This document shows positions 23,216 through 41,812 of a DNA stretch of 64,000 nucleotides, piece by piece. Position 1 is the stretch's first letter, and each line of letters opens with the position of its first letter. The notes below the pieces were generated by a model, which did no database searches, was not told where the DNA came from, and saw nothing but the letters and a program-made list of their open reading frames with translations. Both the position numbers and the translations under genes were made by a program. This DNA comes from a phage. Location of the stretch: the NCBI GenBank assembly GCA_025829515.1, contig GCA_025829515.1_4865.1; one strand, 5' to 3'.

Positions 23216-23854
23216 ATGCAATTACAATTTCGTCAACGGTCTGTACTACTACCGTTTAGCGCTATATTAGGTTCGTTTACCAAAATGCTGTCTGTGGATT
23301 TTACTGCAGCTGAGAAAGAAGCGCTGTTATTGGCGGCAGTCGAAGAAGTATTGTGGGAGGCGTTTTACGTAGTGCCGTTTCGTAGATGCTTAAACGCCCC
23401 GTATGTTGAAGGGCAGTTTGTCAGCGCGCTTTCCGCTGCGATTACCAAACGTAAACTAAATGCCATGGCGCATGTCAAAGAGATCACCGCGCAACGAGGA
23501 CGGATATTCGCTACCATCAGAAATGTGTTAATTAAAGAAGGGTTTCTTGCAGATGCGTTAGGTCCCGAGGTTCCTTGGGAACCGGGTCATCCACCGCGTC
23601 AGTTTGACCACGGGTACAAGTTAAGTATAATTATGCCACGCGGTAAGCGTGACGTCTCATTGGGGAAATGGTTACAGATAAGTTGGGTTCGTCCTACTAT
23701 CGATTGGCAAGAAATGTCGGTCAATCGCTATCTGGAACACCTGGCAAAAACACCGGCACAGTTTCACCGTTCAACAATCCTGCCGCTACACTTGCTGTTA
23801 AAACCGTCCCTGTCATTGGCAGAAGCCAGATACCTGCTTAGTGGAGAGAAGTGA
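23216..23854 (+). CDS. hypothetical protein (212 aa), coupled to downstream GNAT
   Basis: AAGGA upstream; stop overlaps the GNAT start (ATGA). Confidence 0.7.
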   Translation: MQLQFRQRSVLLPFSAILGSFTKMLSVDFTAAEKEALLLAAVEEVLWEAFYVVPFRRCLNAPYVEGQFVSALSAAITKRKLNAMAHVKEITAQRGRIFATIRNVLIKEGFLADALGPEVPWEPGHPPRQFDHGYKLSIIMPRGKRDVSLGKWLQISWVRPTIDWQEMSVNRYLEHLAKTPAQFHRSTILPLHLLLKPSLSLAEARYLLSGEK

Positions 23855-24336
23855 TGCTTGTTATTAATGTGGTCGAGGATAAGATTCCCGCGAATGTTTA
23901 TCCTGAACTGGTTGAATGGGTACGCGACTTAAACAGTATTCGCGAGGAGCCTATTAAACTCACGATGTTTGTTGAGGATGATATCGTGCGGGGAATCATG
24001 GCATGGGAACCTGGCCATTTGGTCTATATGGTTGTGCCCGAAGAATCGCGGCGGGGCGGTGTCGGCAGATTTATGCTTAAGTATCTTCAGCAGAACTCCG
24101 ATCGTAAACACATCAGCTGTCGTGTTCACCCGACCAACATTCCCGCGCTAGGATTCTTTCACCAACAAGGCTTCCAGATTGACCGATGGTATATTGCTGC
24201 TGACGGCCAACGGTATTTTCGTATGACGAACTACAATGTTATTTCGTCACACACGCCGCCGGAGGAAAAGCTTTTAACTCATTACGCTGAAAGCGTTCCC
24301 ATTTTTCTTTCGATGGCAGAAGGTCATTTCGTCTAA
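23851..24336 (+). CDS. GNAT-family N-acetyltransferase (161 aa)
   Basis: Acetyl-CoA loop-like RRGGVGRFML and C-terminal GFFHQQGFQI. Confidence 0.65.
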   Translation: MMLVINVVEDKIPANVYPELVEWVRDLNSIREEPIKLTMFVEDDIVRGIMAWEPGHLVYMVVPEESRRGGVGRFMLKYLQQNSDRKHISCRVHPTNIPALGFFHQQGFQIDRWYIAADGQRYFRMTNYNVISSHTPPEEKLLTHYAESVPIFLSMAEGHFV

Positions 24337-26012: not shown

Positions 26013-26612
26013 ATGAAAAAGATTTATAAAATTGCGGTAATCGGTTCTCGGAAGACTGATGAAGATACCATGTCTGAAATGTACATGCGATTGTTACGTG
26101 GGTTTAATGCGCTGCACGCCAAAGATTACACGATTCATTTTTCCTCTGGCGGCTGCTGGTGTGGTCCAGACCAATTGCAATTCCGATTTGCCCGACAGTG
26201 GGCGAATACAATCGACCAAGATACCGGCAAGAAAGTGGTGTGGGATGATGAGTTCATTTGTTACCTACCCGATGAGAAAAAGCTCTGGCTCAAGAAACAG
26301 AATCCCAACGTAGAGTTCCGTGTAATCCCTCAGGATGACCGCTATCGTGAGATAGTAGGTAAGCTTCATCCCGCGCCAGAAAAGCTCCAGGAGTTCGCCT
26401 GGGCGCTTCATGGCCGTAATCTGAATATAATTATGGGCGATGATTTAGCAACGCCTGTAGACGCAGTTTATTACTCTGCGCCTTTAGATAAACAAGGTAA
26501 TCCGACCGGCGGTACTGCCATGGGCGTGAAATACGCTAAGCAGTGTGGTATTCCTTGTTACCACCATGCGCTTGAAGGACATCTGTGGCTTGAGAGCTTG
26601 TGCTTATTATGA
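26013..26612 (+). CDS. SLOG/DprA-like Rossmann-fold protein, putative (199 aa)
   Basis: AGGAGG upstream; pattern IAVIGSRK ... SSGGCWCGPD ... TGGTAMGVKYAKQCGIPCY resembles the Gly-rich loops of the DprA/LOG (SLOG) superfamily. Motif-level only. Confidence 0.35.
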   Translation: MKKIYKIAVIGSRKTDEDTMSEMYMRLLRGFNALHAKDYTIHFSSGGCWCGPDQLQFRFARQWANTIDQDTGKKVVWDDEFICYLPDEKKLWLKKQNPNVEFRVIPQDDRYREIVGKLHPAPEKLQEFAWALHGRNLNIIMGDDLATPVDAVYYSAPLDKQGNPTGGTAMGVKYAKQCGIPCYHHALEGHLWLESLCLL

Positions 26613-26925: not shown

Positions 26926-28059
26926 ATGTCGACGCTCGATTTAGATTTAGAAGTCCTGACTGACGACTACGATCGCCTGGTCGCACTCGAAGGTCTGGGA
27001 GTTAAGCCCGACTTCCCTGCGGTTTGCGCGATCCGTCAGCGTTGGTGCTTAACCGACGACGGTGAAGATATGTTGGTTGCTCGTGAATCGCGCGAAGCGA
27101 TGGAGCGTGCTCAGTTTATGACTGATACTGACCCGCGGGCTGGCATCCATCGCGCAGCAGGGCGCATTACTGCGAAAGCTGTTAAAGGTACTGGAAAGTT
27201 AGTGGGTGCTGGACTAGGTGCAACCGCAAAGGGCGCGGGTAAACTCTCGAAAAAGCTCGCATTACGCTTTTACGATTTCGCGGAAGCGCTAGCGAAAGAA
27301 CAAGCCGACCGTTTGAAAGAAATAACTTCGAAAGCTGCTTTCATGGAACGTAAGCTCAATAAGCTTAAAACGCGAATGTCACTGCTAGATGACCACAAAA
27401 CACTCGCTGCGGTCGACGTTCACACGAGTAGCTGGACGTCTAAAATTTGCTTTGAAGATCGACCCGATTTTGAAGCGTGTGTTAAGTTTTCTAAACAAAC
27501 AAATGCGTACGAAGGCGTCGTGCAAAAGTACACGGTTTACACACGCACCGCTCTGAAGAAAAGCAAAGCATTCGAAGGGCCGGGCTTAAAACAAATCAGC
27601 AAGTCCACGAACTGGGCAGTTAAGCGTGCTGCTGGGTTGCTTGGCATCATCGATCCCTTTAAAAAGGTGGAAGCTTTTCCTGTCCCTGGAAATATCGTTG
27701 TGGTTGAGCACCATAGTGGTAAGGTCAGTTGGGCAATTGCGCGTGACGGTGAGTATGGTGAAACCATTAAATCGCTGGATATGCATCAGTGTGGGAAAGC
27801 AATAGAGGCTGTGGAAGCACTTATCAAATCTATTGCTGCACGTGGAACAAAGAACCGTGTTGTGGGCTACACCGGCATTTACGAAGAAGTGGAAGCGATG
27901 AAGTCCGAGCTTAAGAACCTAGAAGGGGATGAGCTGAAGGAGGCCACGTTACGTTACCGTAATGCAATGGCGATGGAAGACGCTTTCACCACGGCGTTGG
28001 TACGTGTGGCGGAGGGTCTAATGGAGTGGACGAAGCAATCGTTGGCTGAGGTGAAATGA
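26926..28059 (+). CDS. hypothetical protein (377 aa), coupled to downstream GNAT
   Basis: AAGGAG upstream; stop overlaps the GNAT start (ATGA). Confidence 0.7.
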   Translation: MSTLDLDLEVLTDDYDRLVALEGLGVKPDFPAVCAIRQRWCLTDDGEDMLVARESREAMERAQFMTDTDPRAGIHRAAGRITAKAVKGTGKLVGAGLGATAKGAGKLSKKLALRFYDFAEALAKEQADRLKEITSKAAFMERKLNKLKTRMSLLDDHKTLAAVDVHTSSWTSKICFEDRPDFEACVKFSKQTNAYEGVVQKYTVYTRTALKKSKAFEGPGLKQISKSTNWAVKRAAGLLGIIDPFKKVEAFPVPGNIVVVEHHSGKVSWAIARDGEYGETIKSLDMHQCGKAIEAVEALIKSIAARGTKNRVVGYTGIYEEVEAMKSELKNLEGDELKEATLRYRNAMAMEDAFTTALVRVAEGLMEWTKQSLAEVK

Positions 28060-28523
28060 TGAAAATTGTTTTTGTCACCAAGCCCAACTCTCCGTATGGA
28101 AAGAAATATTACGCCGACTTGTTAGGACTACACAACAAGTTATACGACGATCAGAAAATAAAACTTGCCGACTTAAACGGTCGTGAAGGGTTTAATCAAA
28201 TCTCAAAACTGGAGGAGGTTTGGGGTGAAGGTACGCTGTGCGCTTGCGCCGTTGATGACCGTGGTGTGGCTGTTGGCTTCATCACCTTTGGCTACACCAA
28301 AAAGGGACAACGTTTCCTCTGGGTATATAACTTTTTTGTAGATGAATCGGTTCGTTCACAAGGCGTTGGTCATGAACTGATCGAAGCCGTAGAGAACTAT
28401 GGCAAATCAAAAGGTTGCGCGTGGATGCAGCTTAACGTGCTCGGTAATAACGACCGTGCTATTGCGTTTTATGAACGTTTCGGATTCCGAACTGAATACC
28501 AGGATATGGTAAAGGAGCTTTAA
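28056..28523 (+). CDS. GNAT-family N-acetyltransferase (155 aa)
   Basis: VRSQGVGHELIEAV acetyl-CoA loop and C-terminal AIAFYERFGF. Confidence 0.7.
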   Translation: MMKIVFVTKPNSPYGKKYYADLLGLHNKLYDDQKIKLADLNGREGFNQISKLEEVWGEGTLCACAVDDRGVAVGFITFGYTKKGQRFLWVYNFFVDESVRSQGVGHELIEAVENYGKSKGCAWMQLNVLGNNDRAIAFYERFGFRTEYQDMVKEL

Positions 28524-29462: not shown

Positions 29463-30059
29463 ATGTCTGAGATGATTCTCGATTCGCTGTTTTTGATTAC
29501 GGTTGCAAACATCAATAAAAACGGCAATCTTCCAGAATACGTAGACATAAGTCGTCATGGCTTTAAGCGTCGTTATCAAATCGGTAAGGTACTAGAGATT
29601 GCCTGTTTAGTAACGAACATGCGTAGACCGGTGGAAGGCTGTAGCGTTAAACATGCACAGATGATACTCGGGCGTGCTATTTCAGAAGTACGTCGTAAGC
29701 GTCGTCGCGCACCGTATCGCTTTTATCCTAACTCCACCAAACAGGTGGTCGGTGAGGGGGAAGGTGTGGTTGATTTGCGTGAGGCCAGTTGCAATGTAGG
29801 TGGTATTGCACGTGACTGGTTAATGAGCATTATCAGTAAGCATCCACGTACGCCTACACCGCAAGAAGGGCAGGCGGTACTCGCACTTATGCGTAAGACC
29901 CATTTGGTGATTACTGACACACCAAACCAGGCAGCACGAATGCAGCACTATTTAGCATGTCGTGGATTTACCACACTTGCAGTACCTTCAGAATACGCAG
30001 CTGATATTAAACTTCCGACAGTTCCCGAGTGGTCTGAACCGAAAGTTGATCATCAGTGA
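29463..30059 (+). CDS. hypothetical protein (198 aa)
   Basis: ATG at 29463 with AAGGGGAG 6 nt upstream (track start 29460 is GTG). Confidence 0.65.
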   Translation: MSEMILDSLFLITVANINKNGNLPEYVDISRHGFKRRYQIGKVLEIACLVTNMRRPVEGCSVKHAQMILGRAISEVRRKRRRAPYRFYPNSTKQVVGEGEGVVDLREASCNVGGIARDWLMSIISKHPRTPTPQEGQAVLALMRKTHLVITDTPNQAARMQHYLACRGFTTLAVPSEYAADIKLPTVPEWSEPKVDHQ

Positions 30060-30065
30060 GTTATA

Positions 30066-30109
30066 CCCACTCCTTCGGGAGTGGGTCGACTCTATTCTTT
30101 TTTTTCTTT
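30066..30109 (+). terminator. rho-independent terminator (UUCG tetraloop)
   Basis: cccactcc-ttcg-ggagtggg plus a T-run. Confidence 0.8.
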
Positions 30110-30169
30110 ACGTCTGGTCGCTATATTGTGACACCACTACAATTAATTAAACTTTTGGGGAAGAATAAA

Positions 30170-30793
30170 ATGTTAAACTCAGTGGCGCTGGATGGTCCAG
30201 ATTTTTCTGGCAAATCAACACTCGCTATAACGATTCAAGCGATGTTGCGCTCCGCTGGCGTTAATGCCATCATCGTCAATCACCCGACGAATACCACTGA
30301 AGCCGGTATTAGTGCACGCTCTCTGGTTATCCAGCACGCCTCTAATGAACGTATTGCCAAAGCGATGTGTCTGGATTTCCAATACACGATGGATTTCGTT
30401 GTACCAGAGCACGATGTCGTTATTTTTGACCGTTTTTGTCAATCGACTATTGTCTACCAGGGCGTAGATGGTAAAGGGGAAGTTTTCCGTTCGCGGGTAT
30501 TAGACCACATTAACGCACCAAAGCTTTACGTGGCAACCGATGTATCTTACGAAACCGCCACAGAACGCTTTAAGAAGCGCGTAGAAGCACAAGGTAAGCA
30601 CTGGGATGATGAGGTACTGACAGCGAAGTATCTGCGCACACAGACCGATTGGGACGCCTTACGCGACCATTACCGTTTTGCGTTCCACATCACTACAGAC
30701 GGTGGTGATAAGTTTCCACTGATGCGAATTACAGCAGACGACGATATGGCGTTACAAGCCGCCCGTATCGTTGAACGTATTCTGGCAGGTTAG
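30170..30793 (+). CDS. tmk: thymidylate kinase-like nucleoside monophosphate kinase (207 aa)
   Basis: P-loop LDGPDFSGKST near the N-terminus and DRFCQSTIVYQG matching the Tmk DR(H/Y)xxSxxAYQG motif; internal ATG 30170 chosen because track start 30056 lies inside the terminator. Confidence 0.6.
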   Translation: MLNSVALDGPDFSGKSTLAITIQAMLRSAGVNAIIVNHPTNTTEAGISARSLVIQHASNERIAKAMCLDFQYTMDFVVPEHDVVIFDRFCQSTIVYQGVDGKGEVFRSRVLDHINAPKLYVATDVSYETATERFKKRVEAQGKHWDDEVLTAKYLRTQTDWDALRDHYRFAFHITTDGGDKFPLMRITADDDMALQAARIVERILAG

Positions 30794-32468: not shown

Positions 32469-32516
32469 ACGCGTTATCCTCATGTTGTGACAGCATTACC
32501 TTTTGAGGGCATTACA

Positions 32517-33518
32517 ATGAAAACTGTGGCTAAATTGTTCCGCAGCAGCATTCGCTCTGCCGAGTTCCAAAATAACGTCGGTACCGATACTGTACGAGCA
32601 CGCCGCCTAAAAGAGTTTCTAAAGGACGAGACTTATTCTGTTTACGTGGTCCGGAATAAAGAAACCTGGGAGGGTTATTTAGTGGCCACCTATCGACACG
32701 GTGACCCTACACTAACCTGTCACTATTTTGAGGAGTTTGTACCTGGGGCGTTCGATAAAGTTGGTTTGGCCCTTGTGCTCGACCATACCGGATTCGAATA
32801 TATGTCGTGCCCAGCACCTACTGACGATGTTGAACAAAAACTGGTCGAAAAAGGGTTTGTTCTTTCAGATATCGTTTGGGCATGTCATTCTAAACTGTTT
32901 GACAAAGTAATCACCGCATCAGAAATCAAGATTATTTCTGGTGATGCATACGCAGAACTTACCAAGGAAGATAAAGACGTTATCCTGAATTTGATTAGCG
33001 GTGCAATTTGCGAAGAGTTAGAGTACGATGTGCGCGGCTACTATACACACATTGGTCCGTTAGCAGAAACAGTAATAGCAAGAATTCAGCACGCTAATGT
33101 GGAGACTGCAATTTGGCGAGACGGTCATGATATCGTCGGTATTGCCCAGATGCGCTTGGTTACACCAGGCGTCGTTGAACTTTCTGGTTTAACCGTTGCA
33201 CCTACGCACCGTAAACGTGGCATTGGTCGCCGGCTAATGGGCGCGCTATTCGATTTCGCACAACGTCATTCCGACCAAGTCTATATTGAAACAGCTGCTG
33301 ATAATAATCCAGCAAATCACCTGTACGGCAACATCTTACGTTGCAAGCAGGTACTGCGTACACTAACGTTGAAACGCGATCCTGAACTTATTAGCTGGAA
33401 ACGGGTGAATGGGAACCGCGCCGATCGAGTGCTGAAAGAAGAACCTAGCATTCCGGTGGAGACTACAACCAGGCTGACTATCAGTGATATGTTTCAATCT
33501 GGCATGAGAGGATGTTAA
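32517..33518 (+). CDS. two-domain protein with C-terminal GNAT acetyltransferase domain (333 aa)
   Basis: C-terminal VELSGLTVAPTHRKRGIGRRLMGALFDFA is a GNAT acetyl-CoA-binding motif; N-terminal about 200 aa unassigned. Confidence 0.6.
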   Translation: MKTVAKLFRSSIRSAEFQNNVGTDTVRARRLKEFLKDETYSVYVVRNKETWEGYLVATYRHGDPTLTCHYFEEFVPGAFDKVGLALVLDHTGFEYMSCPAPTDDVEQKLVEKGFVLSDIVWACHSKLFDKVITASEIKIISGDAYAELTKEDKDVILNLISGAICEELEYDVRGYYTHIGPLAETVIARIQHANVETAIWRDGHDIVGIAQMRLVTPGVVELSGLTVAPTHRKRGIGRRLMGALFDFAQRHSDQVYIETAADNNPANHLYGNILRCKQVLRTLTLKRDPELISWKRVNGNRADRVLKEEPSIPVETTTRLTISDMFQSGMRGC

Positions 33519-33521
33519 CGG

Positions 33522-34340
33522 GTGATAAAACCAATTTTAAAATGGATGGGTGGTAAGAGTCGTGTACTGCCCGAGCTGCTACAGGTGTTTCCGGATGCTG
33601 AGTATTTCGTTGAACCTTTTGTGGGCGCAGGGTCAGTGTTTTTAAACACTAAATACCCGAACTATATTCTCGGCGACACGAACCCGGACTTAATCGAGTT
33701 ACTGACCATGGCGCGCGATCGTCCGGAAGCGCTGATTCTGGAAGCAAAGGCGCTCTTTGCAAATGGGACGGACCGCGGTCTCTACATGGAACGGCGCGAG
33801 GGATTTAACAGCGAAGCAACCACGGGGAAACCTAATCTCCAGCGCGCCGCGATGTTCCTGTATCTTACACGTCATGGTTACAATGGTTTGTGCAGATACA
33901 ATCAGTCGGGTGGGTTTAACGTGCCCTATGGTCAACACCCGAACGGTGTCTATTTCCCTGAAGAGGAAATTCTGGCGTGGGCAAAACGTTGTTCGGAAAC
34001 CAACGTCGAGCTGCTCTGCGCGGACTTCCGCGACATCCTAAATAAGTGCCCATCTAACGCTGTGATATACGCCGACCCGCCCTACATCCCACTTTCGGAT
34101 ACGGCTAAACATGCGCAGTATCACAGCAAAGAATTTTCACAAGCTGACCACCGCGAGTTAGCGAAACTTTTAAAACAACAAGCTGCCGATGGCAATAAGG
34201 TCGTTCTGTCAAACGCAGATACGTTACTCACACGTGACATCTACTACGGTTTTACCTGGCGTGAAGTTCAGGTGGGCCGATATATGTCCGCCGATGCGAA
34301 TAAACGTAAAGCGGTGACAGAGCTAATCGGCACCTTATAA
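33522..34340 (+). CDS. dam: Dam-type DNA N6-adenine methyltransferase (272 aa)
   Basis: Dam signature blocks LKWMGGK, VEPFVGAGSVFLNT, LYLTRHGYNGLCRYN, FNVPYG and catalytic DPPY; GTG start. Confidence 0.92.
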   Translation: MIKPILKWMGGKSRVLPELLQVFPDAEYFVEPFVGAGSVFLNTKYPNYILGDTNPDLIELLTMARDRPEALILEAKALFANGTDRGLYMERREGFNSEATTGKPNLQRAAMFLYLTRHGYNGLCRYNQSGGFNVPYGQHPNGVYFPEEEILAWAKRCSETNVELLCADFRDILNKCPSNAVIYADPPYIPLSDTAKHAQYHSKEFSQADHRELAKLLKQQAADGNKVVLSNADTLLTRDIYYGFTWREVQVGRYMSADANKRKAVTELIGTL

Positions 34341-37845: not shown

Positions 37846-37888
37846 CCCCTACCTAACTTCGGTTAGGTAGGGCTCTTTTTATTTTTAA
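37846..37888 (+). terminator. rho-independent terminator (UUCG tetraloop)
   Basis: ccctacctaac-ttcg-gttaggtaggg plus ctctttttattttt. Confidence 0.85.
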
Positions 37889-37906: not shown

Positions 37907-38359
37907 ATGTTTCAATGTTCAGTCGTCAATGATGCGGAATTGGCCGTGTACAAGCAGCGCACAATCCGGGCGCTGGATGCTGAAAAACCAGTCGATGTTA
38001 AAACGCGTGCAATCATTAGGGCATTTAGCGAATGGCCGAATATCGCAACCGTTTGGGCATTCACGGGAGAAGTTCGCAAAGACGGAGACAAGCTTCGTAC
38101 ACGTAGACACCACAGCTTAACATTTGTGGCAACCGAGGCGGGTCTTAAAGACATTAATCATTTATTAGAAGGATGGCAGCCGCACGAATACGGGAAACGT
38201 TTTCAGTTAAACTTTACTTGGCTGCGTCAAGAAGGCAACGCGAATCTCTGTTATCCAAGCTGGACGTTTAGACTCAACTATCGACCTGACCCAGATGTGA
38301 TGGAAAGAGTGATGGAGCACTGGCTCGCACTCGCAATTTTTACAGAACACAACCATTAA
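37907..38359 (+). CDS. hypothetical protein (150 aa)
   Basis: ORF after terminator. Confidence 0.65.
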   Translation: MFQCSVVNDAELAVYKQRTIRALDAEKPVDVKTRAIIRAFSEWPNIATVWAFTGEVRKDGDKLRTRRHHSLTFVATEAGLKDINHLLEGWQPHEYGKRFQLNFTWLRQEGNANLCYPSWTFRLNYRPDPDVMERVMEHWLALAIFTEHNH

Positions 38360-38387: not shown

Positions 38388-38858
38388 ATGCCAGTTTTAT
38401 ACGGTGGTGTGGATCTGAAAGTTTTGGATCGGTTTAAACTACGGGCATCCGAAGCGCTCGTAAACGGTTGGGTCGAGCGTGGGGTACGGGATGCGTGTGA
38501 AGTTATTTGCCGTTACCCCGGCGCGACGACAATGTGGTCATGTCATGGACACGGACCATATTCTAAAAAGAACTCGCCAGGGGAGTTCCATGTAGTGTTT
38601 GTTCTTGGTGTTGGCTTTGAGCACAAAGCGCATGAGCTAGTTGCTGAGTTAATGAAAGCGGATATTCCACCGTTGTGGGATTTATCCATGGCGAGACTCA
38701 TGTACCCTGATGATGATTTCGTTTATGACCTCAGCGAAATCACCCTGAAAAACACGTATAACGCGTGGAAGATAACGTATCGTTATCTGCACACCGAACA
38801 ATCCCTTCGTGAAATTCGTAAAGTATTCCACACAGTTTGCAAAAAGGTTTTTAACTAA
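38388..38858 (+). CDS. hypothetical protein (156 aa)
   Basis: AAGGAG upstream; TAATG coupling to next gene. Confidence 0.7.
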   Translation: MPVLYGGVDLKVLDRFKLRASEALVNGWVERGVRDACEVICRYPGATTMWSCHGHGPYSKKNSPGEFHVVFVLGVGFEHKAHELVAELMKADIPPLWDLSMARLMYPDDDFVYDLSEITLKNTYNAWKITYRYLHTEQSLREIRKVFHTVCKKVFN

Positions 38859-39556
38859 TGGCTAAGCAAAAGAAACCCCGTAACAAAAAGTATAACCCGA
38901 AAGTTGCCACAGAACGTACGGCACACACCGTCGCTGAAAACGCTCTGAATCGTATCACGTTTATCGGCAGTTCGATTCGTCGCCTCGGGCCGTACGCGGG
39001 CCGTGGTTTTCACTTTACGGCAAGTCCTCGTATTCGTGCTATCGCCACAGATATGTTAGTCGGTGGGCTGTTCGACCAACCGCGACCATGGCATCTTTGG
39101 GTGATGCACCTCACTGAACTCGACACCGGTGAAATTGTAACAGAAACCGCAGTTGCCACACTCGACGATTATACTTTGGCGGACTTCTGTGAACACGCTG
39201 AGAAGTTAGTTAAATCGTTACGCCCTGAACAGGAAGAGGGGAAGTATTTCGGTTATGCATTTGTGGCCGCCCCGAACGAGCGGTACGACTTCAAAGCGGA
39301 AGAAGACCAACTCATTGAAAACTTCATGCATTCTGGACTACTTGATACGTCGTTACATCTGTCGGAAGAGCAACAGTTCGTTAGTCGTGCAGAAATGGCC
39401 AACCTGCTCGTTGGTTATACTCGGAAGTTTGACGTGACCGTTGAACATGTCAAAGAAGTACCAGAGATTGTGAGCAAGAAAGACGAGGTGGTGCTTCCGG
39501 TTGACGAGGTTGTCAGTAAAGTAGCGACTGCGATAGGGGCAACGGGGGATTACTGA
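38858..39556 (+). CDS. hypothetical protein (232 aa)
   Basis: ORF in coupled operon. Confidence 0.7.
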   Translation: MAKQKKPRNKKYNPKVATERTAHTVAENALNRITFIGSSIRRLGPYAGRGFHFTASPRIRAIATDMLVGGLFDQPRPWHLWVMHLTELDTGEIVTETAVATLDDYTLADFCEHAEKLVKSLRPEQEEGKYFGYAFVAAPNERYDFKAEEDQLIENFMHSGLLDTSLHLSEEQQFVSRAEMANLLVGYTRKFDVTVEHVKEVPEIVSKKDEVVLPVDEVVSKVATAIGATGDY

Positions 39557-39765
39557 TGAATCTACGTTGGCCGATCGTGGCTGCTGTGTTGTTTTGTATT
39601 TATATCGCCATCAGCACCAGTACCCGCACTGCAGAACGTCGCGAGACCGCAACCAGTACGTTCAGAATGTGCATTGACCGCATAGACCCGAACAGCACCA
39701 CTTATCCTGACGCGGTGAATGCGTGCCGTAAAGCAGTTGCTGAGATATTGAAAGAGGAAAATTAA
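39556..39765 (+). CDS. small membrane protein (69 aa)
   Basis: TGATG coupling; N-terminal TM helix WPIVAAVLFCIYIAIS. Confidence 0.6.
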   Translation: MNLRWPIVAAVLFCIYIAISTSTRTAERRETATSTFRMCIDRIDPNSTTYPDAVNACRKAVAEILKEEN

Positions 39766-39992
39766 TGGAAAACCTCACACCGATTGAGATAGTGTCGCCA
39801 TTCGACCGTTACGTATATGGACAAACGCAAGCAAAGAAAATGCTGGCGATTGCGCTACGTAATCGATATCGTGCCAACAAACTCAACGTAGTGGACCGTA
39901 TGTCGGTCCACAAACAGAACCTTTTAATAGAAGGTCCAACAGGCACGGGTAAAATGGCGCTGATGCGTGAAGAAAAACAGAAACAAAAGTGA
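39765..39992 (+). CDS. truncated HslU-like AAA+ ATPase N-terminal fragment (75 aa)
   Basis: Aligns by eye to the first about 70 residues of HslU as recalled ([32 protein letters not shown] ... ILMIGPTGVGKT versus PIEIVSPFDRYVYGQTQAKKMLAIALRNRYRA ... LLIEGPTGTGKM); ORF stops right after the degenerate P-loop; TAATG-coupled. Confidence 0.6.
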   Translation: MENLTPIEIVSPFDRYVYGQTQAKKMLAIALRNRYRANKLNVVDRMSVHKQNLLIEGPTGTGKMALMREEKQKQK

Positions 39993-40000
39993 GGTAAAGG

Positions 40001-41008
40001 ATGGCGAAGCTCGTTTCGTTTTCAGCAGGGTTGGATTCCACCTGGATAATGTATCAGCTGCTATGCAAAGCACCGGCCAATGAAGCACGACATGTCCGTC
40101 CTGCGTATTTCTCCATGTGGAATGGAGGTAACGCGAACTTCATGGAAATTCTTTGTAGCGTGGCCATTGTTGAACGGTTGATGGATAGACACCATGCACA
40201 AACCGATCATGTTACATGGGCGGTGCTCGGGGAAGAGAACTTCCCGCCTGTCGTTAGCGCTGGATATGCTAACGGCTGGTCGCCTCTGGTTCAGCAGGGC
40301 AATGTTGTTAACGGTCTCGCTAAACTGATGTGTGGTATTACGCGCAAACAGCACCACGCCTATGCAGTTGTTGGTTGGAATAAGCTAGATGCGTTGGAGA
40401 ATAGTCTAGAGCTGGGAGATTGGACATTAGACGAGTACGCTCGCTTAAAGAACCTCTATAGCGAATTGATGTATTTCCAAGATCATGCCGGTCGCGTTCC
40501 ACCGCTTCTAACACCTGCGTGGGATAAAGAGAAACTGGAAATGTGGCAGGAGTTGCCGGAAGATATTCGTAGGTTGGTACAGGTCAGTAACTACAACAAC
40601 TACGAATTCGCGATAGACCGTGAGAATAACGTGCTCATCGTTTATGCCAATCCGTCAGCAAAGTCGCAGAATTATCGTAGTCTTGGTATTACACCGTCAG
40701 TGGGATGGGAGATTAAAATCAACGATGCTTACAGACGGGTATGGTGTTCTGCTCTTGGTAGTGCTATTTCTGCTATGGGTTTGGACGTGCCGGCTTTTGC
40801 TAACTTTAAGGACACGGAAAGAAACCACACGACCTTTACGGTAAGTGAAGATACTGACCGGTTATGTATCACATCGTTTACCGCGGAAGAGTGGTGCGAG
40901 TATGCGCCACATTTTAAAGCGCTTCAGGAGAAAGAAAAAGAGATAGCGAAAAATGCCAAAGCAAGTAAAGCTGTGGACGCTCCAACTGGCGAAGTGGCGG
41001 ATAGCTGA
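40001..41008 (+). CDS. PP-loop ATP pyrophosphatase superfamily protein, QueC-like N-terminus (335 aa)
   Basis: N-terminal LVSFSAGLDSTW resembles the SGGxDS PP-loop (QueC VVVFSGGQDSTT); no QueC-type C-terminal Cys cluster seen. Confidence 0.4.
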   Translation: MAKLVSFSAGLDSTWIMYQLLCKAPANEARHVRPAYFSMWNGGNANFMEILCSVAIVERLMDRHHAQTDHVTWAVLGEENFPPVVSAGYANGWSPLVQQGNVVNGLAKLMCGITRKQHHAYAVVGWNKLDALENSLELGDWTLDEYARLKNLYSELMYFQDHAGRVPPLLTPAWDKEKLEMWQELPEDIRRLVQVSNYNNYEFAIDRENNVLIVYANPSAKSQNYRSLGITPSVGWEIKINDAYRRVWCSALGSAISAMGLDVPAFANFKDTERNHTTFTVSEDTDRLCITSFTAEEWCEYAPHFKALQEKEKEIAKNAKASKAVDAPTGEVADS

Positions 41009-41336
41009 AAAACGGAATTTGCCAAAGCTGGATATAACGGTTAAGTCGGGGCTGAAATATTTGGCACCCGACTGGGACTTTCTGATGGACTACAAGAAGT
41101 CTGACAAAGGCCCCGACGCAGAAGCTGCGTATACCAAACGCTACCTGCAGAAACTTAGTCGGTTGTTTGATGAAGACACTGATAAGTTGATAGAGATTCT
41201 CCGCCAGGGCGAGGTCGTACTAATGTGCTATTGCCCACCGGGGAAATTCTGTCATCGCCACTTGCTAGTTTCTTACCTTATTGAAATCGGTGAGTGGTTC
41301 GGTTATGAAGTAATTTACATGGGCGAATTATCGTAA
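40953..41336 (+). CDS. hypothetical protein with CYC-x6-CHRH motif, DUF488-like? (127 aa)
   Basis: Overlaps the 3' end of the PP-loop gene by 56 nt; motif VVLMCYCPPGKFCHRHLL. DUF488 attribution is from recollection and weak. Confidence 0.45.
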   Translation: MPKQVKLWTLQLAKWRIAEKRNLPKLDITVKSGLKYLAPDWDFLMDYKKSDKGPDAEAAYTKRYLQKLSRLFDEDTDKLIEILRQGEVVLMCYCPPGKFCHRHLLVSYLIEIGEWFGYEVIYMGELS

Positions 41337-41347
41337 GGAGAGTCCTC

Positions 41348-41743
41348 GTGAAATTGATTATGCCTAAAACAGTTCCTAATCAGGATATGGTTACGACTAC
41401 ACTGTTTTCTGAATCATTACGTAACTCTGTACGTCAGACCGCTTCACGTCTAGACGTAGCAGTTGAAGAACTCGACCCAGAAATCTTCATGAAGTATGCG
41501 TTTATTGCAGAAGGTTACGCGATCGCCCTGAGTTATGCGCGGTATGTCGATGACGTGACAGAAGCTAAACGTTATTTAGAAGGCTGTTGTCAAGTTTTCC
41601 GTGAAGAAATCACCGAGATGGAGATGGTTGACCGCGGCTTACCTGAATTTGTAAAGGTGGGTTACGATAAGCTGTTGCAATCCATCGCGGATGAAATCGG
41701 ACGTCGCGGGTTAACTGTAGTGCACAGCGCTACACTGCACTAA
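41348..41743 (+). CDS. hypothetical protein (131 aa)
   Basis: GTG start with AAGGAGAG 6 nt upstream; terminator follows. Confidence 0.6.
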   Translation: MKLIMPKTVPNQDMVTTTLFSESLRNSVRQTASRLDVAVEELDPEIFMKYAFIAEGYAIALSYARYVDDVTEAKRYLEGCCQVFREEITEMEMVDRGLPEFVKVGYDKLLQSIADEIGRRGLTVVHSATLH

Positions 41744-41756
41744 CACCGTACGAGTA

Positions 41757-41798
41757 GGCTACCACACGATCATATGTGTGGTAGCTTATTTTTTTTGT
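41757..41798 (+). terminator. rho-independent terminator
   Basis: ggctaccacac-gatcatat-gtgtggtagc plus ttattttttttg. Confidence 0.85.
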
Positions 41799-41812
41799 TT
41801 CTGGAGGCGTTA

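Follow-up and report, generated by a model that had tools for sequence, protein, structure and literature searches.

The 64,000-nt stretch of phage DNA analyzed here (contig GCA_025829515.1_4865.1 of NCBI GenBank assembly GCA_025829515.1; hereafter the window) contains, on its plus strand, two overlapping open reading frames (ORFs), ORF1 at 40001-41008 and ORF2 at 40953-41336, both located as first described in a first-pass annotation of the sequence. ORF1 is preceded by a GAGG Shine-Dalgarno sequence and encodes a 335-aa protein that starts with MAKLVSFSAGLDSTW. It is predicted to belong to the PP-loop ATP pyrophosphatases and to have a QueC/Cap9-like fold, and it represents a jumbo-phage-specific family without a Pfam model. 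ORF2 encodes a 127-aa protein with a DUF488-N3a domain and a RapZ-C/Cys-phosphatase-like fold. At the nucleotide level, positions 39500-41800 share 99% identity with Salmonella phage SPLA1a, 98% with Escherichia phage vB_EcoM_EC001, and ~95% with SPN3US, of the genus Seoulvirus, whose members are jumbo phages of roughly 240 kb. The SPN3US homologues are YP_009153413 (annotated as "hypothetical protein") for ORF1 and YP_009153414 ("DUF488 family protein") for ORF2, which by gene order are gp119 and gp120; these numbers come from counting the genes of the SPN3US RefSeq record, a count that places the major head protein at gp75, as it should. The analysis shows that ORF1 carries an intact ATP/pyrophosphate site on a QueC-type scaffold, together with an acceptor pocket that has been remodelled and is strongly conserved within the family.

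The PP-loop motif of ORF1 (S8-A-G-L-D-S13, plus strand, 40022-40039) is an SxGxDS variant of SGGxDS and lies directly after strand beta-1 (residues 2-6). In homologues at 33-37% identity, the SAGLDS of ORF1 is replaced by TGGLDS, the textbook PP-loop. An alignment of 45 family sequences, reaching down to 16% identity, contained relatives with TGGLDS or SGGLDS; G10 and S13 were invariant, and the pattern across the family was [ST]-x-G-[LVI]-[DE]-S. The loop also aligned with the PP-loops of Cap9, QueC, MesJ, and LarE. Searches with ORF1 alone yielded nothing meaningful in Pfam (E ≤ 1), NCBIfam, PADLOC, or PDB sequences, and the sole database match was PHROG 8825, which has no known function; the relationship with QueC was therefore exposed only by family profiles and the structure model. 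The profile of the 45 sequences matched Cap9 (E 4.8e-6), QueC (2pg3, 2.8e-3), MesJ/TilS (4e-3), and LarE (8e-3) in the PDB, so that significant similarity to the PP-loop superfamily was found through the family and not through ORF1 by itself. Eight of the 45 members matched the Pfam QueC family (PF06508, best 2.4e-6) and four matched the PP-loop family ATP_bind_3 (PF01171). A comparison of the family with E. coli QueC by hhalign gave a probability of 91% and an E-value of 9e-7 over residues 1-53, and when the family hidden Markov model (HMM) was run over the retrieved loci, E. coli QueC was the only match outside the family. Furthermore, the Rossmann-like alpha/beta fold of ORF1 can be superposed on solved PP-loop enzymes, and its best non-family matches in the BFVD viral structure library were phage QueC proteins. 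ORF1 is thus very probably a member of the PP-loop superfamily with a QueC-type fold. The first-pass annotation had proposed a PP-loop ATPase with a QueC-like N-terminus, and this proposal was borne out, with QueC-family enzymes as the nearest relatives in both structure and sequence; the assignment held against profile searches that might have placed the protein outside the superfamily.

The family-conserved core spans residues 1-245 (plus strand, 40001-40735) and comprises a Rossmann-like PP-loop domain (about residues 1-190) and a lid-like segment with the invariant K221. Its signature consists of E49, Q98-Q99, G125-W126-x-K-x-D130-x-x-E133 (GWxKxDxxE), P172-x-W174-x3-K178 (PxWxxxK), and K221-x3-Y225-x3-G229 (KxxEYxxxGI). 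Among the 45 sequences, whose overall identity is only 16-35%, Q98, G125, P172, K178, and K221 are invariant in addition to the two PP-loop residues G10 and S13, and E49, W126, D130, and W174 are conserved in at least 90%. Scaffold residues kept from QueC-type enzymes are a Glu that follows beta-2, a G...D segment that follows beta-4, and a TPxW...K..MW segment. The last of these includes P172-x-W174-x3-K178 and was placed by HMMER in register with TPLMWLNKAETW of QueC. The K221-x3-Y225-x3-G229 motif is located in the lid-like segment, which occupies the sequence position of the QueC zinc-binding region. Distant family members align only to about residue 245. The variable C-terminal region (residues 246-335; plus strand, 40736-41005) is conserved only in close relatives, as judged from the alignment together with secondary structure and the predicted local distance difference test (pLDDT), and in the model comprises a small beta/alpha part, then a long, 30-residue helix (295-325), and at its end a disordered tail (326-335). 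No conserved cysteine column was present in alignments of 10 and 45 family sequences, and the earlier description of ORF1 as a protein without the QueC zinc cluster and with an extra C-terminal region was correct.

A true QueC in this position would provide preQ0 for 7-deazaguanine modification of the phage DNA. The QueC-like fold of ORF1, the name QueC (7-cyano-7-deazaguanine synthase) given to one homologue by JGI, and the fact that other phages do encode QueC for DNA modification (PMC13329287) all speak for this explanation. However, canonical QueC is defined by SGGxDS, YxQxHxxE, VPxRN, YPDC, and a C(x)8CxxCxxC zinc site, and its residues Y35, R99, Y131, and Y189 are experimentally essential (PMC13329287), whereas the ORF1 family keeps only the PP-loop and the Glu (E49) of these five features. 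In comparison with QueC (PF06508; PDB 3BL5 and 2PG3; E. coli b0444), ORF1 is ~100 aa longer and gives no match to the Pfam QueC family at E ≤ 1. E49 is all that is left of YxQxHxxE, VPxRN has become VQQGN, and both YPDC and the zinc motif are absent. Four QueC signature motifs and the zinc cluster are counted as missing, including the four essential residues. ORF1 is therefore not a QueC, and the explanation as a preQ0-producing enzyme is largely refuted and extremely improbable.

The pathway context points in the same direction. The first-pass annotation had suggested nucleic-acid or nucleotide modification and a search for queD, queE, folE, and dpdA-like partners, but no folE, queD, queE, TGT, or dpdA was found in the complete SPN3US RefSeq annotation, which was covered by its annotation and spot checks rather than by an exhaustive profile scan of the 264 genes. 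The SPN3US "transglycosylase" was rejected as a TGT because it is an SLT lytic enzyme, and two radical SAM genes were rejected as QueE candidates because they are SPASM peptide-maturase-like and have no QueE match. Since these partners are not annotated and the radical SAM genes are not QueE, it is very unlikely that the locus belongs to a 7-deazaguanine DNA-modification pathway, and a QueC-type modification of nucleic acid, for which the QueC substrate motifs are lacking as well, was not upheld. The two radical SAM genes form an adjacent pair outside the window (NC_027402, 140024-142139; L021, 29025-31140, where the prefix L denotes a retrieved locus), and the larger protein matches SPASM maturase models (CXXX-repeat, PapB-type) with E-values of 1e-33 to 1e-36, which suggests a RiPP-like (ribosomally synthesized and post-translationally modified peptide) peptide modification system in a jumbo phage.

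The ORF1 family is small and unnamed, has neither a Pfam model nor an assigned function, and is restricted to jumbo phages of the phiKZ-like type. When 1.84 billion (1.84e9) representative proteins were searched exhaustively with the family profile, only 43 members were recovered, and all sampled contexts were phiKZ-like jumbo phages. No member turned up in 185,579 species-representative genomes of bacteria and archaea when these were scanned by pattern. The GenBank phages that carry the family are all jumbo phages and include Seoulvirus, ~29 Erwinia phages, Salmonella phage SA002, Aeromonas phage AhC3_1, Pseudomonas phage EL and relatives, Klebsiella phage Miami and relatives, and phages of Escherichia and Proteus; the homologues sampled there are labelled "hypothetical" or "Rossmann fold-containing." Four jumbo-phage contigs in IMG/VR also contain the family, and metagenomic members occur in phiKZ-like contexts with Peptidase_S80, on contigs of ~237 kb. 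In Pseudomonas phage EL (L025, 4001-5771, gp200-gp201) and in an EL-like metagenomic locus (L020, 6001-7956), the family gene lies immediately upstream of a thymidylate kinase gene, and in the window a thymidylate kinase gene (30056-30793) is located ~9 kb upstream of ORF1. This adjacency may hint at a link between the family and nucleotide metabolism. The GenBank records LR5359xx (Salmonella phages SPFM1, 5, 7, 8, 9, 12, 14, and 20) aligned with the locus only in the form of 6-30 short fragments. Their "proteins," with 40-76% local identity over small fractions of the query, pollute homologue lists. These records look like error-rich or scrambled assemblies rather than real variants.

ORF2 matched PF22751 (DUF488-N3a) with 46.1 bits (gathering threshold 27), an E-value of 7.3e-12, and coverage of profile positions 26-114 of 118, and PF04343 (DUF488) with 28.3 bits (gathering threshold 22.2). 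DUF488 had been on the list of families to be checked in the first-pass annotation; it was the right family for ORF2 and not for ORF1. A rhodanese-phosphatase (RapZ-C-like) fold was found for ORF2. Residues 92-103 read CYCPPGKFCHRH and contain the DUF488-N3a signature C92-Y-C94-P-P-G-K-F-C100-H-R102 (plus strand, 41226-41258), which by secondary structure forms a loop between the strand 87-92 and the helix 101-115. C92, C94, F99, C100, H101, and R102 are invariant columns in 19 homologues. The loop sits where the Cys-Xn-Arg phosphate-binding loop lies in Cys-phosphatases, and we infer that it corresponds to the Cys/His/Arg loop of the subclade of DUF488-N3a that Pfam describes as "active." DUF488-N3a has >1,400 relatives in phages, most of them without ORF1 nearby, and the best 120 are all stand-alone proteins of ~120-150 aa. 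Within this family, ORF2 is an ordinary stand-alone member with no distinguishing feature. A RapZ-C/DUF488/DUF4326 clade within the rhodanese-phosphatase superfamily was reportedly defined by Burroughs and Aravind in 2023, and the Aravind laboratory is said to have predicted, for this clade, activity on the phosphate or sugar-phosphate groups that nucleotides or nucleic-acid ends carry. DUF4326 itself is a rhodanese-phosphatase clade that was predicted to process terminal ribose phosphates in ADP-ribose derivatives (Iyer et al., 2022, PMC9503650). The literature searched on DUF488, DUF4326, YeaO, and SPN3US gp119/gp120 contained no functional data. ORF2 is a separate enzyme-like protein of the DUF488-N3a clade, which falls within the RapZ-C/DUF488/DUF4326 part of the rhodanese-phosphatase superfamily. 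DUF4326, a relative of the ORF2 domain, is found in giant viruses fused to DprA/SLOG-like AMP-binding proteins that are related to an anti-Avs protein (bioRxiv 10.1101/2025.06.06.658234). A 199-aa gene in the window (26013-26612) corresponds by position to the SPN3US "DprA-like DNA recombination-mediator protein" and has no Pfam match at E ≤ 0.001.

The 3' end of ORF1 and the 5' end of ORF2 overlap by 56 nt (plus strand, 40953-41008), with ORF2 in the +1 frame, and similar overlaps are present in the Erwinia-phage relatives. Translation in two frames showed that the same nucleotides encode both the ORF1 tail AVDAPTGEVADS and LWTLQLAKWRIAE of ORF2; the VDAPTGEVADS of the tail is the alternative frame of this conserved N-terminal segment of ORF2. 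That the ORF1 tail seems conserved between Salmonella and Erwinia phages is probably due to the overlap, through which the structured N-terminus of ORF2 constrains it. A role of the DAPTGEVA tail as a degron or substrate peptide was rejected because it is the +1-frame shadow of ORF2, the model shows it as disordered, and it varies where the downstream gene is a different one. A programmed frameshift that fuses ORF1 to ORF2 is unlikely, as ORF2 has its own ATG, more than 100 homologues share a conserved stand-alone N-terminus, and a +1 shift would be required. The overlap speaks for joint expression, and ORF1 and ORF2 are probably co-transcribed and translationally coupled in Seoulvirus and in the Erwinia-phage relatives.

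The first-pass annotation also suggested that the two genes might act as a pair, which was not upheld. All retrieved loci were scanned with local HMMs of the ORF1 and DUF488 families. In the window, SPN3US, EC001, L005, L012 (at only 25% ORF1 identity), L015, and L016, a DUF488 gene overlapped the ORF1 homologue or followed it directly, and in L003/L004 and L017 it was 2.5-2.8 kb away with other genes between. No DUF488 was detected by the scan in the flanks of the ORF1 homologue in L019, L020, phage EL, or phage Miami, and DUF488-N3a occurred without an ORF1 homologue in five distinct loci (L008, L009/L010, L011, L027, and L028). The loci with adjacent genes are not independent evidence for a pairing because all are from syntenic relatives, and since the >1,400 DUF488-N3a relatives are mostly stand-alone, the overlap suggests translational coupling and not a proven two-enzyme system. 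These distributions argue against an obligate pair. ORF1 and ORF2 are evolutionarily separable, and a joint reaction would be possible but not required.

One such joint reaction is sulfur transfer, in which ORF1 would adenylate a carbonyl or carboxylate in the manner of ThiI, MnmA, TtuA, NcsA, and LarE, and ORF2 would supply a persulfide, leading to a thio-nucleobase or thiocarboxylate. The rhodanese-phosphatase fold of ORF2 with its three invariant cysteines fits this scheme, which would parallel the arrangement of PP-loop and rhodanese in E. coli ThiI. On the other hand, the ORF1 family has no conserved cysteine and no ThiI-type catalytic Cys/Fe-S site was found, and sulfur transfer by the two proteins is accordingly judged markedly improbable.

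Two terminator-like hairpins on the plus strand, one upstream (37847-37872, an 11-bp stem followed by a T run) and one downstream (41752-41791, a 17-bp stem followed by a T run), bracket an eight-gene block that includes ORF1 and ORF2, which the latter hairpin closes. No sigma-70-like promoter was found on the plus strand of the window, as expected because the phage uses its own RNA polymerases. Within the block, 37907-38359 and 38388-38858 (150 and 156 aa) are adjacent tandem paralogues that both match phrog_7413, of no known function, with E-values of ~1e-56 to 1e-59. The neighbours of ORF1 encode hypothetical proteins, an AAA fragment, and the DUF488 protein. The AAA fragment, a 75-aa ORF (plus strand, 39765-39992), had been taken for an HslU mimic; it is instead a remnant that holds residues 1-73 of a ClpX/HslU-like AAA_2 ATPase and ends just after the Walker A motif GPTGTGK. 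It matched phrog_4339 at positions 2-70 of 552, TIGR00390 (hslU) at 1-65 of 441, and ClpX models. The ATPase is full length in related phages (572-580 aa; L003 and L005), tblastn of the full-length protein on the window found only residues 1-73, and in SPN3US the slot is filled by two small, unrelated genes. Judged from these comparisons, the slot just upstream of ORF1 is an indel hot spot with a truncated gene and not the site of an HslU mimic. An HslV-family peptidase is annotated at the start of the SPN3US genome. A 338-aa gene that follows the full-length AAA ATPase in Erwinia phage pEa_SNUABM_9 was tested as a paralogue of ORF1 and is not one. The Dam methyltransferase mentioned in the first-pass annotation as a hint at several modification activities is real (33522-34340; a D12-class N6-adenine DNA methyltransferase, PF02086, E 1e-53), but nothing beyond shared synteny ties it to the ORF1 locus. 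Three GNAT acetyltransferase genes lie within 10 kb of each other (23851-24336, 28056-28523, and 32487-33518), the last directly upstream of the Dam-type gene.

Taken together, the best overall explanation, which is favored with moderate confidence, is that ORF1 is a catalytically competent PP-loop ATP pyrophosphatase on a QueC/Cap9 scaffold that represents a family of phiKZ-like jumbo phages. An adenylation-type reaction on a nucleotide or other substrate, as envisaged in the first-pass annotation, is possible, and an adenylate-forming mechanism as such is likely by analogy with the superfamily. ORF1 would bind ATP as QueC, Cap9, QatC, NadE, and GMP synthetase do, and would adenylate its substrate on a carboxylate or carbonyl oxygen, releasing pyrophosphate; a nucleophile, most likely an amine or ammonia, would then displace AMP from the adenylated substrate. 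All substrate and zinc motifs of QueC and Cap9 have been lost from ORF1 and are replaced by a family-specific set (QQ98-99, W126, D130, E133, K221, and Y225), and the predicted substrate is not 7-carboxy-7-deazaguanine (CDG). As substrate we infer a protein terminus or a small molecule, the latter a nucleotide or heterocyclic carboxylate, in preference to tRNA or DNA, since the protein is acidic and has neither an RNA-binding module nor a catalytic cysteine, although any specific substrate class can be named at best tentatively.

The properties that favor a small molecule or protein also bear on a role in RNA modification. ORF1 might act as a base modifier of the TilS/ThiI/TtcA kind on tRNA or other RNA, with phage or host tRNA as the target and ORF2 processing an RNA end. 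However, neither the Pfam scan nor the structure model revealed a THUMP, a TilS C-terminal, or any other RNA-binding module in ORF1. The family is acidic, with a median isoelectric point (pI) of 5.7 and a net charge of -1 to -20 in 43 of the 45 members, and its closest relatives, QueC and Cap9, act on a free base or a protein and not on tRNA. An RNA-modifying ORF1 is thus quite unlikely.

Several points weigh against the interpretation of ORF1 as a competent QueC-type pyrophosphatase that acts independently of ORF2. Significant sequence similarity to QueC and Cap9 is limited to the first ~50 residues, and the later motifs are aligned through sub-threshold HMMER segments and by eye. In many members of the family, the PP-loop Asp is replaced by Glu (SGGxES). 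The chemistry is derived from the superfamily, and the arguments on substrate class (pI, no RNA-binding domains, no cysteines) are weak. The SPN3US literature searched does not mention these genes. In addition, a DUF488 gene is directly downstream or overlapping in seven of the 12 distinct ORF1-bearing loci with enough flanking sequence, and a functional partnership of ORF1 and ORF2 in this lineage is possible.

With the assignment of ORF1 to the PP-loop ATP pyrophosphatases, a gene found in dozens of studied jumbo phages gains a concrete enzyme class that can be tested, together with a motif signature. A tempting wrong annotation, the 7-cyano-7-deazaguanine synthase label given to homologues by some pipelines, is also removed. 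ORF2 was already known as an ordinary member of an uncharacterised family. The new element is a distinct QueC-fold lineage on the phage side, in which the ATP machinery is kept, the pocket is fully remodelled, and the zinc site is absent. A survey of the QueC superfamily from 2026 is limited to PF06508 and did not reach the ORF1 family (PMC13329287). If the substrate is a protein or a nucleotide-derived signal, the family would represent new chemistry in phage-host conflict; if ORF1 serves ordinary metabolism, the gain would be a modest one in annotation. One further conceivable activity, as a phage counterpart of Cap9 and QatC, is that of an ATP-dependent ligase that puts a non-deazaguanine acid, such as a nucleotide-derived or heterocyclic carboxylate, on a protein or nucleotide target during infection, and that in Seoulvirus-type phages might act with the DUF488-N3a protein. 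Such a ligase is an unlikely candidate, and, if true, would constitute a new counter-defence or host-takeover modification chemistry.

Since 2025, bacteria have been known to reuse the QueC scaffold for protein-nucleobase conjugation in anti-phage defence, as in Cap9 and QatC (PMC13329287). A phage counterpart of these proteins could be a protein ligase, a decoy or antagonist of type IV CBASS or QatABCD, or an enzyme that attaches an acid resembling a nucleobase to a protein of the phage or the host. Cap9, the QueC-like protein deazaguanylase of type IV CBASS (PDB 9NTO chain B), is, at ~185 aa, a minimal protein in which the QueC substrate motifs (Y/FxQx5E, RN, and YxDC) are intact and a zinc site is present. 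In contrast, ORF1 has 335 aa, no conserved cysteine, other pocket residues, and no CD-NTase or TGT-like partner, and is encoded by a phage rather than in a defence island. In a motif comparison, the ORF1 family lacked the zinc motif of Cap9, its CDG-binding residues (in RN and YxDC), and every motif of the QatC-specific set. Pfam and PADLOC searches detected no substrate-protein operon around ORF1 (CD-NTase or QatB with Cap10/TGT or QatA/QatD), and ORF1 itself had no PADLOC match. Furthermore, no neighbouring protein has a conserved N-terminal Gly, as ORF2 homologues start with MPK, MRI, MKV, or MEI. An ORF1 that acts as a counterpart of Cap9 or QatC is therefore unlikely. ORF1, as a PP-loop ATP pyrophosphatase with a remodelled pocket, resembles QatC, the QueC-family component of the QatABCD defence system, in the way the scaffold has been changed: in both, the QueC Rossmann core and the SGGxDS loop are kept, the substrate-site motifs are completely remodelled, and terminal extensions are added (PMC13329287).

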